Sequence record: NC_054903.1
Strand: one strand, 5' to 3'
Source of the DNA: Enterobacteria phage GiZh
Length of the DNA: 64,000 nt
A program made the translations under genes and the position numbers. Position 1 is the stretch's first letter; the number at the start of each line of letters is the position of its first letter. Positions 4,707 to 27,063 of the stretch are shown in pieces. Below the pieces are notes generated by a model. It was not told the DNA's origin. It did not search any database and saw nothing but the letters and a program-made list of their open reading frames with translations.

Positions 4707-5000
4707 TTATTCGCCTGTGATTTCGGTTACGATATTTTTGTTATTAAAGTTTTTATCGCAATACAGAACATAATTATACTGCATTACACCACCAGACTTA
4801 AGCTGTTTTTGTACTTCAGCTTTCATTTCAGGACGATCGCGCTCAACGATATTCATAATATCCGCTTCAATTTGAGTTTCAACTTCAGTCTGATCTGCAG
4901 TCATAGACCATTCACACAAATCTTTATCATAGCCTGCCATAGCAGGCTGAGCAGCACAAGAAGCCAAAGTAAAAATTGTAGCAAAAATAAATTTTTTCAT
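4707..5000 (-). CDS. sp: Spackle-like periplasmic protein
   Basis: 97 aa with signal peptide MKKFIFATIFTLASCAAQPAMA; size and position between 61 and dmd as in T4. Confidence 0.75.
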   Translation of the reverse strand: MKKFIFATIFTLASCAAQPAMAGYDKDLCEWSMTADQTEVETQIEADIMNIVERDRPEMKAEVQKQLKSGGVMQYNYVLYCDKNFNNKNIVTEITGE

Positions 5001-8593: not shown

Positions 8594-9436
8594 TTAATCA
8601 ACTGCTATTGGATGAATAGCATTAAACTTATGAAATGCTTCTGATTTTTCTTTACGCGAAACACACATGCGAAGAACCTTTAGTGGTTCATCTTCTTCAC
8701 CCAACGATTTTCGTTTTTCAATATTAGAAGTTTTCCAACGAGCTTGCTCTGGAAACTCTCTATTGATTTGCTCAAGCGCTCTATTATGTTTAGAATTACT
8801 GCGAATTGAACTGCACCCGCCAGGAGCTTGTGCTTTTCCAGATACAACCAGATATTTGAACAAGGCCAAATGCGGATAACCTTGATTAATTAAATTGAGA
8901 AATGCATACATATCTTCGCACAAATCAATTTTTCCATACCCAATTTGTTCTGTCGTAAGTTTTCCAAGGTCATACCATGTATTCGTGAATCCATATGAAT
9001 TTTCACGATAATTACCCCAAGATGAAGTAATTTTAAAAATAGGTAGACGAGCATGGCCATGATAATACCCACAATCCATGGCATCCTCAACATATTGAAT
9101 CAATTCATAGAACTGTTCACGAGTCAATTGATTGACTTTATCCACACAACGACGATCATCTCTTTTTCGCATTGAACTCATACGAATAGTAGTATCATCG
9201 TCAATCATCCAGATTCGTTGACCTGCATACATATCAGTAATTGCTTTACGAGTGCCGGCAATTCCGTTTACATCATCAGGAATAGTTACAATTTTAGCTC
9301 TAGACCCGTAAGCGTCATAATAAGCTTTTTCTTCGTGTTCACGCACTACAATATGGGGTTCATAATCAGTCGGAAACATATCAAGGGCAGAAACTGCCCC
9401 TACACGTTGATAGCTCGGAATTACGAATTGAATCAT
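8594..9436 (-). CDS. putative glycosyltransferase (occupies the T4 segA/beta-gt position)
   Basis: 280 aa from verified ATG 9436-9434 (ATGA overlap with gene 42 stop); DxD-like IDDDTT motif; does not resemble recalled T4 beta-gt. Confidence 0.45.
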   Translation of the reverse strand: MIQFVIPSYQRVGAVSALDMFPTDYEPHIVVREHEEKAYYDAYGSRAKIVTIPDDVNGIAGTRKAITDMYAGQRIWMIDDDTTIRMSSMRKRDDRRCVDKVNQLTREQFYELIQYVEDAMDCGYYHGHARLPIFKITSSWGNYRENSYGFTNTWYDLGKLTTEQIGYGKIDLCEDMYAFLNLINQGYPHLALFKYLVVSGKAQAPGGCSSIRSNSKHNRALEQINREFPEQARWKTSNIEKRKSLGEEDEPLKVLRMCVSRKEKSEAFHKFNAIHPIAVD

Positions 9437-10173
9437 TTCCACTCACCGTTATAATCTTTTTTCACAATATGAGTTTCGCCAGTATTCCACCAATGATCAA
9501 CCAAGTAAAAATGACGAGAATATACATGAAGACTTCCAACATTCCATATAATAGAACCTGCTTTATACTGACGAGTTGAATCGCCTGCATTCAAATCAGA
9601 TACTAATTTATCTAATACGTATTTTTGCCATGCATAATCATTACGGAATCCGAAGACCACGTCATTTGAGCGCATGCTTACTACTGCATTGACTTTCTTA
9701 TCACGAATCAGGTACTGTACTGTATTAGTACACATGAAATCTGACATACCATCTTTATTGTAGTCAAATTGCATGGATGGACGAGTATAAATCATGATAC
9801 CACGTCGAGAATCAGGATTTTGACCAAGTTCAGCTAAACACATATCATACTGGGCATAGTTATCTTCTGACCAAATAGCCCAACCATAATTCGAGTTAAT
9901 TTCGCCTTTAGAAGATGCTACCTGCTGCCAAATCTTTGGTGTTTCACCTGGAATATCTTTAACAAACAAGCTCTTAGATTTATACCATTCAAGTTCACGC
10001 TGAATGTATTCATCATTAAGAGCGCCAAAAATAAACGGTTCATCTGCTACAAATGATGCGCCAATAATTTCAATAGTTTTAACACCAGTTTTATCAACTA
10101 CGAAATCTTTTTCCTTTAATGCAAGCCCCAAATGAAGACGGATTTCTTCAACTGTCATAGAGTCACTAATCAT
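9433..10173 (-). CDS. 42: dCMP hydroxymethylase gp42
   Basis: 246 aa; MISDSMTVEEIRLHLGLALKEKDFVVDKTG...; ATG verified. Confidence 0.9.
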   Translation of the reverse strand: MISDSMTVEEIRLHLGLALKEKDFVVDKTGVKTIEIIGASFVADEPFIFGALNDEYIQRELEWYKSKSLFVKDIPGETPKIWQQVASSKGEINSNYGWAIWSEDNYAQYDMCLAELGQNPDSRRGIMIYTRPSMQFDYNKDGMSDFMCTNTVQYLIRDKKVNAVVSMRSNDVVFGFRNDYAWQKYVLDKLVSDLNAGDSTRQYKAGSIIWNVGSLHVYSRHFYLVDHWWNTGETHIVKKDYNGEWK

Positions 10174-10326
10174 TTAAACCTCAATTGATGCATTCATATT
10201 TAAATTGTAACAGTAATAAACCCCACCCTATGATAAGAGTTGGAATCATAGCAGGAACTGTTACGCTATAGTATATACTTATTATAACCATCAAGATTAA
10301 AAGCAACACTGTTATAATTTTGCTTT

Positions 10327-10578
10327 TCATTCTTTCTCTCTGATGATAATTACCTGATTTGGCTGTGCAGACTTTTTAGTTTCACTAGCAATTGACCAAA
10401 TAAATGTAATAAACCAACCAATAATTGACCAGTTAAACAGTAAAGACGTGAAAAAGATTCCTACTGTCGATTTTGACCCACGCATCAAGGCGATAAACCA
10501 TGGAAGCATGTATATAATAATAGCCAACACACCTGAAACTAAAACCATAAAAATTGAACCTGCTACTAAAGTTTCCAT
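10327..10578 (-). CDS. imm: Imm superinfection immunity membrane protein
   Basis: 83 aa, two hydrophobic helices (METLVAGSIFMVLVSGVLAIIIYMLPWFIALM...); ATG verified. Confidence 0.8.
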   Translation of the reverse strand: METLVAGSIFMVLVSGVLAIIIYMLPWFIALMRGSKSTVGIFFTSLLFNWSIIGWFITFIWSIASETKKSAQPNQVIIIREKE

Positions 10579-10593
10579 GTTTTCCTCACTTAG

Positions 10594-10968
10594 TCAATTT
10601 TTTTTTACACATGAATTATAAGAATTCACTACATACTCCATCGGAGCATTTTTACCAGTACGCCATTGGTAATTATTAGCCCAATTAGCCCAAATTTCGG
10701 CGCAGTAGTTTTCAATTTTTTCTTCGCGTGTAATTACATCAGAATTACGATATGCTTGAGCAGATTCATCTGGACGAATAGCTTCGTCAAAATTCGCCTG
10801 CATTTGTTCTACTGTTTGCTTTGGAGCTTCTTTATAACACTTGACATTAGGATTATAAAATTTGCTTGAACAGTTTACAATTTTTCCTACACCAGACTGA
10901 TTTACTACCGGTCCTTGAGCTACACAACCAGTAAGACCTAATGCAATAACCAAAATAGCGATTTTCAT
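10594..10968 (-). CDS. predicted lipoprotein
   Basis: 124 aa; signal peptide with lipobox MKIAILVIALGLTGC; ATG verified. Confidence 0.6.
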   Translation of the reverse strand: MKIAILVIALGLTGCVAQGPVVNQSGVGKIVNCSSKFYNPNVKCYKEAPKQTVEQMQANFDEAIRPDESAQAYRNSDVITREEKIENYCAEIWANWANNYQWRTGKNAPMEYVVNSYNSCVKKN

Positions 10969-10978
10969 AATAATTTCC

Positions 10979-11215
10979 TCAAATGCAAGTAGTAATTACT
11001 CCAGTAGTGCTTATGCAGGTATTACCCATTTGCACACCTAAAGATCCATTTGTATTCACATGAAGATTATCATCAATTTTAACTGATATTTTACCATTAG
11101 TGTGAATAACGGTGCTAGATTCAATCACAGGTTGAGTATCATTTTCAACACTAACAAATGGAACTGCTGCTAATGCAACTAAACAAACTGCTAAGCATCC
11201 CATAACAATTTTCAT
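10979..11215 (-). CDS. small secreted protein
   Basis: ATG 11215-11213 with GGAG RBS gives MKIVMGCLAVCLVALAAV... signal peptide; track start 11227 is TTG inside the promoter leader. Confidence 0.5.
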   Translation of the reverse strand: MKIVMGCLAVCLVALAAVPFVSVENDTQPVIESSTVIHTNGKISVKIDDNLHVNTNGSLGVQMGNTCISTTGVITTCI

Positions 11216-11252
11216 TTTATTCTCCAAATCTGTATCAGTAGTTGATAGTTGT

Positions 11253-11282
11253 ATAGTACCATGGAAGAACAGTCTTGTAAAC
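11253..11282 (-). promoter_or_regulatory. T4-type early promoter
   Basis: minus strand GTTTACA, 17 nt, TACTAT plus AT-rich UP; part of a 34-nt block identical to 54261-54294. Confidence 0.55.
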
Positions 11283-11369
11283 AGTTTTGTGAAAATTTTT
11301 TAGGGAATTCTAAAGGTCCAGAATCATCTGTTTTTCATAAGTATAGATTTATATTACTTGTATGAAAAA

Positions 11370-11385
11370 GGGACCCGGAGGTCCC
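11370..11385 (-). terminator. intrinsic terminator downstream of gene 43
   Basis: GGGACC-tccg-GGTCCC hairpin followed by U-run on minus strand. Confidence 0.6.
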
Positions 11386-11398
11386 TAGATTTATTCTA

Positions 11399-14095
11399 TC
11401 AGCCAAACAGGAAGTCTAACGAAGCTTTTTCTTCATAGTCCATACCAGCCGATTCACACATGCCTGCAAGCGGTTTAACAAACGATTTTTGGAACAAAGT
11501 TGAGTAGTCAATCCAAGACAATACGTCAGAACGAATTTCTTTTGGAAGTTCTGTGCCCGACGGCCAAGCAATGCACTTGTCACCAAATGGATTTCCTTCA
11601 CGCAATGGAAGAACCATTACTTTATTTCCATCCAAAATTGGAGCTACACCTAAACCGTTAACAGCTCGACGATAAGTTAGCACACCACGAATATGGAACG
11701 GGCATTTAAATCCTGGCCAACCTTTATCATCATATTTCGCTATATCGTTCGCAGTTTTTACTTCAGCGATAACTTTATAGTCAAGTTGACGATATTCTTT
11801 CTCGAAGTTCTTGTAGTATTCTTGAACAGACTCTTCACCTTCCTGAAGAATACGACGAATACTTTCTTCGAGTGCTTCTTGCACTGCTTTTGGTGTTGAA
11901 CTCTGCTGAGTTTCCATACCCATGATTTTTAGATGCGGTTCAGCAAATCGCTTATCTTCCATATCATAAACGTTCAGAGCATAACGCTTTTTCGCTTTCC
12001 AAAATCCGCCAACGCCCTTTGAACCAAGTGGAGGGCAAGAAATAGCTTCACGGTCCATATGCATCAGATGCTCGCGGTTATTCATATAATCACATAACTC
12101 ACGATATGCAACATCAATCATAGGTTCCATCTTTTTCTTACCGAATTGATTCATGAATTCAACTAAATCGTTCTGCTCTTTGAATCGGTCAAGACCAACT
12201 TTTTCAATAACTTTATCTACACAAACATATACCGAATCAGTATCACCTGCTGCGATGAAATCTTCGCCATTAGTTCCACATACTTTATTCAGATACTCAT
12301 TAATTTTACGAGCAATCCACTGAATACCAACTTGACCAAAAATTGTGATAGCAGTAGCATTTCGCAAATCATAGTAACGGAAATGAATGTTACCAAGAGC
12401 ACCATAAAGACTATTAATAAGAATTTTACGGTTCAGCTGATTTGTGTTAGCAAGTGTAGCTGCTTTTTCACATTCTTCAATCAAACTATTGAGAACAGAT
12501 TCAGTATAATTCGATAGTTCATTTAAGAAATCATCACTGAACTTAACATATCGTTCAACTTCAGGTTTAGTTGAACAAGACCCTGCGCCTTTCATAATAA
12601 TCTTTTTAATAGCTTCGGCATTCATTTCTTCAGCGAACATTTTCTTTTTCCAATCTTTACGCTGGAAAAATACTTTAGCGATTTCCTTTGGAATGATACC
12701 TTCTTGATGCTTATCGTACATCCATCCATTCGGAGAACAAGAATATTCATCACTCGGTTTAGGAGCTGTTCCTGCGATATATTCATGAATTGGATGAACT
12801 TTAAACTGCCCACGAATAGTCTCAGGACTAATGTTAACCTGACGAATAATGCTCGGATACAGAGACGTCAAGTCAAAACTCATAATATATCGACGAGCAA
12901 TTGGTTTAGGTTCAAACACAAATGCACCCGGAAAACTCTGTTTAACATGCGAACCTTGTTGAGGAATAACCTTATGTTCACCTTTCAATGAGTTAAAAAT
13001 AATAGCATCCCAGGTTTTAATAGGACTCATTACACCAGAAAAAGGCATTTTAGCGTAATAAGACATACTTAAAACTAGATCGATAAACCCGCGGATTTTA
13101 TCAATTGCTTGAACTGATTCTACGTCAATGATGTTATAACTAATGTATCGTTGATGATTAGTCTCACGAAGTTTATTAATAGGACCGTCGTATGGTAATT
13201 TACCTTTTTTGGTTTCATGCTGAGCAACTGATTCCAAAGAGAATGACGGCAAATTAGTAAATGCGAATTTCTTATACAAATCTAAATAATCAAGAATAGA
13301 TACGCCATCAATAGAATAAATTTCTTTGCTACCGTACATATTTTGGATAAGTTTAGATTTTACTCGACCGATTGGAGAGAAGCGTTTCATACTACGTTCA
13401 CCGAGAACCATTTTAACGCGATTCATGATATACGGAACGTCAAATCCCTCAATATTCCAACCAGTAAAAATAGCAGGTCGTTTCTGTTCCCAAAGATTGA
13501 TATATTCCATGAGCATATCACGCTCGTTATCGAATGGCATATAAATTACTCGGTCAAGAATTTCTTGAGGAACTTCATCACCACCTTCACAGTCAAGCTT
13601 AGCAGCTAACTTTGCATCCCATTTTGATACTGAACCGTACATTGAATTCAAAAGGTCGAAAACATAAAAACGGTCATCAATTGAATCGTAATGAGTGATA
13701 GCATCAATTTCATATTCTGCTTTCATTGGGTCAGGAAATTTATCACCAGTAACCTCAATGTCACAGTTAGCTACACGAACAAATTTTCGGTCATAAACAA
13801 TTTCTGAACCATATGTATCACTGATATAAGCGAGTTTAAAATCGTTCATACCGAGAGCTTCGAGACCGATGTCTTCCATTCGCTTCATCCAGTCTCGAGC
13901 ATCTTTCATTGATGGAAATTTTTGAGGAGCGCAATTTTTACCATAGATGTCTTTGTATTTTGACTCTTCCTTACAATGTCTAAACATAGTTGGAAGATAT
14001 TCTACTTCACGAGTACGTTCCTTTCCGTTTTCATCAATATAACGTTCAACAATGTTATTTCCGACTGTTTCAATAGAGATATAAAATTCTTTCAT
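11399..14095 (-). CDS. 43: DNA polymerase gp43 (family B, with 3'-5' exonuclease)
   Basis: 898 aa; MKEFYISIETVGNNIVERYID...; exo and polymerase motifs (DIE, YGDTDS); ATG verified. Confidence 0.97.
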   Translation of the reverse strand: MKEFYISIETVGNNIVERYIDENGKERTREVEYLPTMFRHCKEESKYKDIYGKNCAPQKFPSMKDARDWMKRMEDIGLEALGMNDFKLAYISDTYGSEIVYDRKFVRVANCDIEVTGDKFPDPMKAEYEIDAITHYDSIDDRFYVFDLLNSMYGSVSKWDAKLAAKLDCEGGDEVPQEILDRVIYMPFDNERDMLMEYINLWEQKRPAIFTGWNIEGFDVPYIMNRVKMVLGERSMKRFSPIGRVKSKLIQNMYGSKEIYSIDGVSILDYLDLYKKFAFTNLPSFSLESVAQHETKKGKLPYDGPINKLRETNHQRYISYNIIDVESVQAIDKIRGFIDLVLSMSYYAKMPFSGVMSPIKTWDAIIFNSLKGEHKVIPQQGSHVKQSFPGAFVFEPKPIARRYIMSFDLTSLYPSIIRQVNISPETIRGQFKVHPIHEYIAGTAPKPSDEYSCSPNGWMYDKHQEGIIPKEIAKVFFQRKDWKKKMFAEEMNAEAIKKIIMKGAGSCSTKPEVERYVKFSDDFLNELSNYTESVLNSLIEECEKAATLANTNQLNRKILINSLYGALGNIHFRYYDLRNATAITIFGQVGIQWIARKINEYLNKVCGTNGEDFIAAGDTDSVYVCVDKVIEKVGLDRFKEQNDLVEFMNQFGKKKMEPMIDVAYRELCDYMNNREHLMHMDREAISCPPLGSKGVGGFWKAKKRYALNVYDMEDKRFAEPHLKIMGMETQQSSTPKAVQEALEESIRRILQEGEESVQEYYKNFEKEYRQLDYKVIAEVKTANDIAKYDDKGWPGFKCPFHIRGVLTYRRAVNGLGVAPILDGNKVMVLPLREGNPFGDKCIAWPSGTELPKEIRSDVLSWIDYSTLFQKSFVKPLAGMCESAGMDYEEKASLDFLFG

Positions 14096-26530: not shown

Positions 26531-26792
26531 TGTAAACTGATTTTTTCAACTTTCTTACTTCACCACGTAATTGGCGATTTAGCTCATCTTTAACTTCTGA
26601 ATCAATACCTTTCATTCTACGCCATTTATCTGAGCGAAAAATGTTTTCAACCATATCTTTATGACTTACCCCATCAGGAGCTTTACGCTTTCCGAAATAG
26701 TCATAATCACGAACTTTCAAGTCTTTACGACGATACGTTTTACCCATGGAGTTTAATTTCCTTAGCAACTGAACTAAATACAGCACGATCAC
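26454..26792 (-). CDS. hypothetical protein
   Basis: 112-aa ORF, basic. Confidence 0.45.
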   Translation of the reverse strand: MIVLYLVQLLRKLNSMGKTYRRKDLKVRDYDYFGKRKAPDGVSHKDMVENIFRSDKWRRMKGIDSEVKDELNRQLRGEVRKLKKSVYIDDDFDYNTSQRVAKRKSNECYRYS

Positions 26793-26922
26793 AAATCATG
26801 TGTTTATGTAACTTGAGTATAATATAGCAAACTTCAAAACTATTTACATGAGTAACACGAACAGCATTACCATTAATGAGATAATACTGTCCCTTTTTAA
26901 TTTCTTTATCAACCACAACCAT
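26740..26922 (-). CDS. hypothetical protein
   Basis: 60-aa ORF just downstream of an early promoter. Confidence 0.4.
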   Translation of the reverse strand: MVVVDKEIKKGQYYLINGNAVRVTHVNSFEVCYIILKLHKHMICDRAVFSSVAKEIKLHG

Positions 26923-26946
26923 ATCAATTCCTCAAAGGTAATTCAT

Positions 26947-26977
26947 GTGTTAATAATACCACAGTTTGAGCTCGTTG
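26947..26977 (-). promoter_or_regulatory. T4-type early promoter
   Basis: minus strand UP, GTTTACA, 17 nt, TATTAT. Confidence 0.5.
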
Positions 26978-27063
26978 TAAACAACTTTGTGAAAATTATT
27001 TTAGGGAATGATAAGAAGGGAACGATAGCTTAGAATGGTAATATACAGAATGTAAGAAAGAAA

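Follow-up and report, generated by a model that had tools for sequence, protein, structure and literature searches.

How a cell infected by bacteriophage T4 shuts out phages that arrive later is a classic question, and its molecular basis has emerged only now, through the interactions of Imm with the tape-measure protein and of Spackle with the gp5 lysozyme. T4-infected cells still adsorb secondary phage; exclusion, like lysis inhibition, takes effect once adsorption has occurred. Imm, an integral protein of the inner membrane, binds gp29, the tape-measure protein (2026 preprint, 10.64898/2026.03.06.709160), and Spackle (gp61.3) is a soluble periplasmic inhibitor of gp5 lysozyme. Here we describe two small open reading frames (ORFs), ORF1 and ORF2, that accompany imm in Enterobacteria phage GiZh (sequence record NC_054903.1), of which a stretch of 64,000 nucleotides (nt), called the window below, was analysed. 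Judged by its sequence, ORF1 is the orthologue of T4 Imm.1. Lipoproteins of the Imm.1 superfamily were found in several Tevenvirinae genera, directly beside imm in every T4-type locus sampled, and this pairing across the sampled genera is a new observation.

The genes themselves are not new: ORF1 is T4 imm.1, already catalogued in T4 and uncharacterised, and ORF2 is an annotated hypothetical. In a time-resolved omics study, T4 Imm.1 was classed as "early-RNA_early-Protein" (PMC9697503, supplementary files 4 and 6), and a CRISPRi-ART study listed the function of imm.1 as "Unknown" (PMC11879866, supplementary files 8 and 15). No discussion of the function of imm.1, and no mention of a lipoprotein paired with imm, was found in the literature searched. 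In a comparative paper of 2018 (PMC5885020), Imm.1 was listed as missing from phages of the RB69 group; contrary to that listing, Mosigvirus (the RB69 group) does carry an Imm.1 homologue, which is 32-34% identical. The RefSeq name of T4 imm.1 is "iduronate sulfatase", and no sulfatase domain was detected in Pfam and NCBIfam searches. Several GenBank records label the gene "immunity protein" or "discriminator of mRNA degradation". Because no domain supports any of these names, they are best regarded as annotation artefacts.

Compared to the described exclusion proteins, ORF1 and ORF2 show both common and distinct features. Like Imm and Spackle, they are early and small and, by prediction, located in the envelope, and imm lies with them in one predicted operon and transcript. 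Neither Imm nor Spackle has sequence similarity to ORF1 or ORF2. With the Pfam model of Imm (PF14373, Imm_superinfect), neither ORF matched at E values up to 1 and only the imm product of 83 amino acids (aa) did; ORF1, ORF2 and orf49, a small ORF downstream of imm, matched no families among the PADLOC-DB defence and exclusion models at E up to 1. BLASTP of ORF1 and ORF2 against the window's Sp (about 4707-5000, minus strand) returned only signal-peptide-level matches (E 0.068 and 1.2). The proteins also differ in placement: Imm.1 is predicted to be lipid-anchored in the outer membrane, unlike the inner-membrane Imm and the soluble Spackle.

Two further groups of phage proteins invite comparison. 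Llp of phage T5 and Cor of phages phi80 and N15 are small, early outer-membrane lipoproteins on the periplasmic side, as predicted for Imm.1. They have no homology to Imm.1, and both block one receptor, FhuA, whereas Imm.1 is conserved whatever the receptor and keeps company with a gene for exclusion after adsorption. Two-component spanins resemble imm.1 and imm in being adjacent genes for an outer-membrane lipoprotein and an inner-membrane protein. However, spanins are late proteins of the lysis cassette whereas Imm.1 and Imm are early, and Imm lacks the long periplasmic coiled coil. The spanins of T4 are pseT.3 and pseT.2.

The assignment of ORF1 was supported by several lines of evidence. 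ORF1 matched the Pfam family DUF5481 (PF17578) with an E value of 2.4e-69 and 230.7 bits against a cut-off of 27, over profile positions 1-102 of 103, and matched phrog_1754 with an E value of 3e-43. Its protein is 96% identical to T4 Imm.1 (NP_049661, UniProt P18057), and the gene is colinear with T4 imm.1 at positions 26636-27013 of record NC_000866, where the T4 region from 26.2 to 27.3 kilobases was aligned. The site is also orthologous, immediately 5′ of imm and 3′ of gene 43, a terminator and an early promoter. Position, promoter and leader are the same in the two phages; the lipobox is LAGC in T4 and LTGC in the window, and otherwise only the last residues differ. The window protein ends in ...CVKKN, while T4 Imm.1 and most relatives end in ...CVKNLT(K) (10594-10610, minus strand). 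This difference traces to a change in the length of an A-run just past the last conserved Cys, and Imm.1 of Shigella phage SHBML-50-1 is 100% identical to the window protein over residues 1-123 of 124. The different C-terminus reflects either a natural variant or a sequencing error in the homopolymer.

A preliminary description of this DNA, made from its letters, had placed two small exported proteins between imm and gene 43, and both ORFs are indeed found there on the minus strand with exactly the coordinates it gave. It had read ORF1 as a lipoprotein with the lipobox LTGC, which agrees with the lipoprotein rule of the PROSITE PS51257 type: a charged n-region, an uncharged h-region and the motif [LVI][ASTVI][GAS]C with the Cys at 15-35. 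The N-terminus of ORF1, MKIAILVIALGLTGC, has a K in the n-region, an uncharged h-region and the lipobox L-T-G-C with Cys15, followed by Val at +2. Relatives with as little as 20-35% identity still carry the motif. When 1.84 billion representative proteins were searched exhaustively with HMMER, only six clusters were returned, all of the Imm.1 family; five of these divergent clusters have a lipobox and the sixth has a signal-peptidase-I type site (AHA/S) instead. A lipobox or a signal-peptidase-I signal is kept in all relatives. Retention of the lipobox in five of the six clusters argues that the motif in ORF1 is not there by chance. An Asp at +2 is absent from every relative examined, and the Val found here predicts sorting to the outer membrane.

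Of 500 Tequatrovirus records, 497 carry an Imm.1 with 95% identity or more, and Tyr38, Cys89 and Cys120 are invariant in the divergent family. The pairwise ratio of nonsynonymous to synonymous substitution rates (dN/dS) ranged over 0.02-0.25 in imm.1, and imm gave about 0-0.07. In the AlphaFold2 model of Imm.1, only a C-terminal helical hairpin that holds Cys89 and Cys120 was confident, with a predicted local distance difference test score (pLDDT) of about 88, and the N-terminal part of the mature protein fell below 50.

The arrangement of the lipoprotein gene and imm was then compared across T4-type phages. In Tequatrovirus and in two metagenomic loci (L011 and L013), imm.1 and imm follow gene 43, and in a third (L014) they follow frd.3, not gene 43. 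In the Mosigvirus PhAPEC2 the pair lies outside the interval between genes 43 and 42, between dmd and sp, with imm.1, imm and sp contiguous (L003, 3495-4530). Both known exclusion genes, imm and sp, thus form one block with the lipoprotein gene beside dmd in Mosigvirus. In metagenomic relatives of 32-52% identity, the Imm.1 homologue is immediately 5′ of a PF14373 gene. Genera without Imm.1 by tblastn still have a lipoprotein gene adjacent to imm, of 146-167 aa with an LTGC or LSGC lipobox; it is 5′ of imm in Moonvirus and Jiaodavirus and 3′ of imm in Dhakavirus and Gaprivervirus.

Comparisons made after the signal peptides had been removed point to probable distant homology of the longer forms to Imm.1. 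A profile of the longer form scored 23 bits against the intermediates P0019 and P0021, a value that none of 1000 shuffles reached, and 9-11 bits against window and T4 Imm.1, equalled by one shuffle in 1000. When the short and long forms were aligned with hhalign in global mode, the probability was 90.7%, and Tyr38, Cys89 and Cys120 are invariant. An Imm-anchored scan of IMG/VR yielded 80 loci. T4-type neighbours (gp43, gp42, uvsX, or dmd and sp) were present at 26 of these, and in all 26 a lipobox ORF lies next to imm on the same strand. Among the other 54 loci two have such an ORF beside imm, and both of these scored at profile background and are unrelated. Seven representatives of lineages not covered by the reference profiles (L028-type, the PS2-like L044, L045, L030 and L042) scored from 189.8 to 17.3 bits with the longer-form profile. 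The numbers in GenBank phages are also near 1:1, with 655, 132, 148 and 60 lipoprotein records (some overlapping) versus 1019 for Imm. In the L044 locus, from a distant T4-like phage that resembles Serratia phage PS2, a further small protein is predicted to be exported: an ORF of 134 aa at 1395-1799, two genes 5′ of the imm-linked lipoprotein, begins with an evident Sec signal (...PTAFA/ST).

Compared to imm.1, ORF2 has a much narrower distribution. It matched phrog_4189 with an E value of 4e-30, and the database proteins found are 77-99% identical; Pfam, NCBIfam and PADLOC gave no match. It was present in 324 phage records, all at one slot, corresponding to about two thirds of Tequatrovirus records, and no homologue was found in the other fetched loci or in the rest of the window. 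T4 lacks it by a clean indel of 247 base pairs (bp) flanked by ATGAAAAT, the eight bases with which both ORFs begin, so ORF2 stands between promoter and imm.1 in the window alone of the two phages. Outgroups lack ORF2 as well, and in T2-type phages the slot holds an unrelated 83-aa ORF with no signal (31 close records). ORF2 is therefore an inserted, optional cassette, a Tequatrovirus-only orphan located between the operon Shine-Dalgarno sequence and the imm.1 ATG. In Shigella phage CT01 the slot is scrambled (L009, 609-1446): a partial imm.1 5′ end and an ORF2 fragment are followed by a second copy of the leader and then a full imm.1, and the annotation shows two unusual fused ORFs. This arrangement suggests recombination at the cassette site. 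The pairwise dN/dS of ORF2 was 0.18-0.57, which indicates that it is a functional coding sequence under purifying selection.

The preliminary description had assigned export signals to both proteins, which agrees with sequence rules, strongly so for ORF1. The N-terminus of ORF2 has K2, a 21-residue hydrophobic stretch from I3 to V23 with ALA/AV at 14-17, and then an acidic flank. The stretch is long, is lengthened by duplications in some alleles and would equally suit an uncleaved anchor. ORF2 is thus predicted to have a signal peptide or a signal anchor, N-in/C-out, with cleavage uncertain. Its N-terminus is otherwise invariant across alleles, save for in-frame 7-aa tandem duplications that change its length (CLVALAA or AVCLVAL, in the alleles P0008, P0014, P0015 and L008). 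The phrog_4189 protein HY01_0043, named "Lipoprotein" in UniRef, comes from these duplication alleles, and the name probably arose because one 7-aa duplication makes a lipobox-like LAAC. The ORF2 of the window has no canonical lipobox, and a lipoprotein reading of this allele was rejected: Cys7 and Cys11 are too near the N-terminus, and the residue at -1 to Cys11 is Val.

The C-terminal part of ORF2 comprises 55 residues and is acidic and beta-rich, with two Cys and an invariant GVITTCI motif. A possible mimicry of the gp5 spike beta-helix was considered on the basis of a match to PDB 9f4a_BB (E 3.1), an 8-residue hydrophobic periodicity and a BLASTP match to the window's gp5 (E 0.033). This lead was rejected: the mature sequence was equalled by 91 of 500 shuffles, and gp5 was not among the top BLASTP matches to ORF2 across 158 window ORFs. 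The best other match in the window, a basic 97-aa protein, was a chance local match. From its sequence, ORF2 can be claimed as a probable optional small envelope protein, and nothing beyond.

The features of the locus are collected in the table. The locus from 10100 to 11450 is 99.7% identical to SHBML-50-1, and 517 records match it, mostly Tequatrovirus; the phage of the window is accordingly classified by sequence as T4-like, a Tequatrovirus. The neighbourhood of ORF1 and ORF2 consists of replication and nucleotide-metabolism genes, and the two ORFs and imm make up the first part, next to the promoter, of an early operon of T4 type that runs from the early promoter through ORF2, imm.1, imm and orf49 to gene 42.

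Features of the imm.1-imm locus in the window (positions of the 64,000-nt stretch)
Feature	Position	Strand	Remarks
Gene 43 (DNA polymerase)	11399-14095	-	
Terminator hairpin at the end of the gene 43 transcript (AGGGACC-TCCG-GGTCCCT and T run)	11369..11386	-	7-bp stem, 5 GC pairs
Early promoter of the operon, T4-type (-35 TTTACA, 17-nt spacer, TG-extended -10 TACTAT)	11253..11281	-	Upstream tract A/T-rich
Shine-Dalgarno GGAG, 6 nt 5′ of the ORF2 ATG	11222..11225	-	Direct sequence reading
ORF2, 78 aa, phrog_4189	10979..11215	-	Predicted signal/anchor, residues 3-23, at nt 11147-11209
imm.1 Shine-Dalgarno GAGG, overlapping the ORF2 TGA stop	10977..10980	-	Direct sequence reading
ORF1, orthologue of T4 imm.1, 124 aa	10594..10968	-	Lipobox LTGC at nt 10924-10935, Cys15
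imm, 83 aa, superinfection immunity inner-membrane protein	10327..10578	-	PF14373, 7.7e-16; 97.6% to T4 Imm (tblastn)
orf49, 49 aa, two hydrophobic segments	10181..10330	-	phrog_3610, 2.4e-26
Gene 42	9433-10173	-	

The preliminary description had credited ORF2 with its own early promoter, and this part did not hold. The promoter serves the whole operon from imm.1 through imm to gene 42; it is identical in T4, where it is directly 5′ of imm.1. No promoter was found between ORF2 and ORF1, which are only 10 nt apart and where the stop codon of ORF2 lies partly within the Shine-Dalgarno sequence of imm.1, so the early promoter is not ORF2's own. Similarly, the GGAG assigned to ORF2 is the Shine-Dalgarno sequence that serves imm.1 in T4. 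The GTTTACAAG...TACTAT promoter is also found 5′ of imm.1 in the metagenomic loci L011 and L013 and in the Mosigvirus PhAPEC2, and PhAPEC2 and L014 also have the CTATCAACTAC leader. The early promoter and the 5′ untranslated region belong ancestrally to imm.1 and move with it. The overlap of TGA and GAGG makes translational coupling from ORF2 to imm.1 probable.

Other signals in the region were also scored. Three terminator-like sites were found versus 0.4 expected, and the hairpin after gene 43 is also kept in T4. A sigma-70-like match at 10 of 12 positions (TTGTAA-17-TATAAT) lies within the imm.1 coding sequence at 10852-10880 (minus strand); it is probably due to chance, since the region has six such matches and the shuffle expectation is 6.3. 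Downstream, the orf49 start overlaps the imm stop (ATGA). The ORF is intact in T4, yet without annotation in NC_000866.4. Homologues of orf49 are directly 3′ of imm in Tequatrovirus, Gaprivervirus, L030/L042 and the metagenomic L011/L014, and none was found after imm in Mosigvirus, JS98-type Dhakavirus, Moonvirus or Jiaodavirus. The imm module may thereby have a third component in orf49, a facultative one.

From these observations a mechanism can be proposed. Sequence rules suggest that Imm.1 would leave the cytoplasm through Sec, receive its lipid at Cys15 and be processed by signal peptidase II. It would present its helical domain to the periplasm, probably with a Cys89-Cys120 disulphide bond, on the poorly modelled N-terminal part. 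ORF2 would be inserted by Sec with its N-terminus in and C-terminus out and be either cleaved after Ala16 or kept as a signal anchor; in either case its small beta-rich domain would reach the periplasm, where it may act as an optional envelope accessory. As the least certain step, Imm.1 may act in the post-adsorption exclusion process of Imm. The persistent pairing with imm, which is the sole functional clue, points to this process. Imm.1 would then form the outer-membrane-tethered periplasmic layer of a block with several layers, in which Spackle acts at the peptidoglycan and Imm, in the inner membrane, binds the tape-measure protein. The most likely mode of action would be an encounter with the tip of the incoming tail tube or with the tape-measure protein, or support of Imm, with no masking of receptors. 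The preliminary description had proposed from position and export signals that both proteins are exclusion factors. For Imm.1 the linkage to imm, seen in every T4-type genome examined, makes this role plausible, whereas for ORF2 it is unsupported; position is a weak argument there, as T4 has nothing at the slot and T2 has an unrelated signal-less ORF. Taken as a whole, from operon and orthology to export, exclusion layer and ORF2 cassette, this explanation is the best available and stands about evenly poised between right and wrong.

Several observations weigh against it. T4 plating is lowered by Imm expressed by itself from a plasmid, so Imm can act without Imm.1, and the preprint reporting this mentions neither imm.1 nor any lipoprotein (10.64898/2026.03.06.709160). 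The knock-down of T4 imm.1 was scored "Not Fit" at -0.77, that is, dispensable (PMC11879866, supplementary file 15). The sufficiency of Imm together with this neutral knock-down implies that Imm.1 could at most be an enhancer or a parallel layer. The phages sampled are related, and the 26 paired loci may represent perhaps 4-6 independent rearrangements; the independent evidence is therefore a few relocations and an inversion of gene order, and not the count of 26. The adjacency could in part stem from synteny that was inherited, or from early regulation common to envelope proteins, and Imm homologues outside T4-like phages do without the lipoprotein. One relative, P0018, lacks the lipid-anchor Cys. 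The AlphaFold2 model of Imm.1 is weak overall (pLDDT 61.5), Foldseek with this fold gave no PDB match at E values of 0.001 or below and only its own family in BFVD, and sequence searches of PDB, NCBIfam and PADLOC returned nothing meaningful. For ORF2, export is a prediction from heuristics, and its AlphaFold2 model (pLDDT 52.8) showed about six short strands at low confidence.

How Imm.1 might be linked to imm can be explained in other ways. A serious rival, which we consider possible but doubtful, is that Imm.1 is an early envelope protein unrelated to exclusion that sits beside imm merely through the shared promoter, with a role in host-envelope takeover, in protection from envelope-based host defence, or in lysis inhibition or the timing of lysis. 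The sufficiency of Imm and the knock-down, neutral in laboratory conditions, would both fit such a role; no exclusion phenotype is recorded for Imm.1, no homology to known exclusion proteins was found in Pfam or PADLOC, and an operon that also holds the small membrane ORFs ORF2 and orf49 may merely gather envelope genes. The arrangement of the genes argues otherwise: adjacency to imm has outlasted at least two relocations and an inversion of gene order, whereas other small ORFs come and go, and in Mosigvirus the pair adjoins sp, the other known exclusion gene. Strict pairing is also what one would expect if Imm.1 were a helper that stabilises, localises or detoxifies Imm and makes no contact with the incoming phage, and the architecture of an inner-membrane protein with an outer-membrane lipoprotein would suit it. 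Higher induction of Imm hampered cell growth, which the authors attributed to probable toxicity (10.64898/2026.03.06.709160, methods), in line with a helper role. In the same work, however, Imm functioned and was purified without Imm.1, and Imm homologues of other phages have no such partner. A helper role seems improbable.

Masking of a receptor from its periplasmic face, in the manner of T5 Llp or phi80 Cor, would agree with Imm.1 being small, early and, by prediction, a lipoprotein of the outer membrane from a virulent phage, features that it has in common with Llp, and is the least probable of these explanations, a very slim prospect. Tequatroviruses, including T4 and T2, use different receptors (OmpC, FadL/OmpF and Tsx). 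Imm.1 is nearly invariant across them and T4 exclusion acts after adsorption, which together make masking unlikely; in addition, Imm.1 had no match beyond its own family in Pfam, NCBIfam, PADLOC, PDB or BFVD. A separate question concerns ORF2, which, in place of an exported effector, might be a small inner-membrane anchor peptide that does nothing in the periplasm, or a selfish or neutral cassette kept for translational coupling into imm.1, a reading that we judge rather unlikely. Other phages have either an unrelated ORF or nothing at the slot, the h-region of at least 21 aa (up to about 28 with duplications) suits an uncleaved anchor, and the structural model is poor. In opposition to this are the purifying selection over the periplasmic part, the retention of ORF2 in so many Tequatrovirus records and the invariance of its C-terminal motif.

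Collectively, the present analysis identified ORF1 as imm.1, reassigned the early promoter, recognised ORF2 as a cassette and documented the pairing of a lipoprotein with imm. If the exclusion role fails, imm.1 would be an ordinary accessory early gene. More tentatively, and with considerable doubt, T4-like phages may carry an exclusion module of two and sometimes three or four genes, in which the Imm.1-family lipoprotein would be an overlooked partner of Imm that meets the incoming tail-tube tip or tape-measure protein in the periplasm and passes it to Imm or blocks it earlier, and in which lineage-specific additions such as ORF2 and orf49 would tune the competitors that are excluded. Imm.1 thus provides a concrete and cheaply testable candidate for a third exclusion layer, either outer-membrane or periplasmic.

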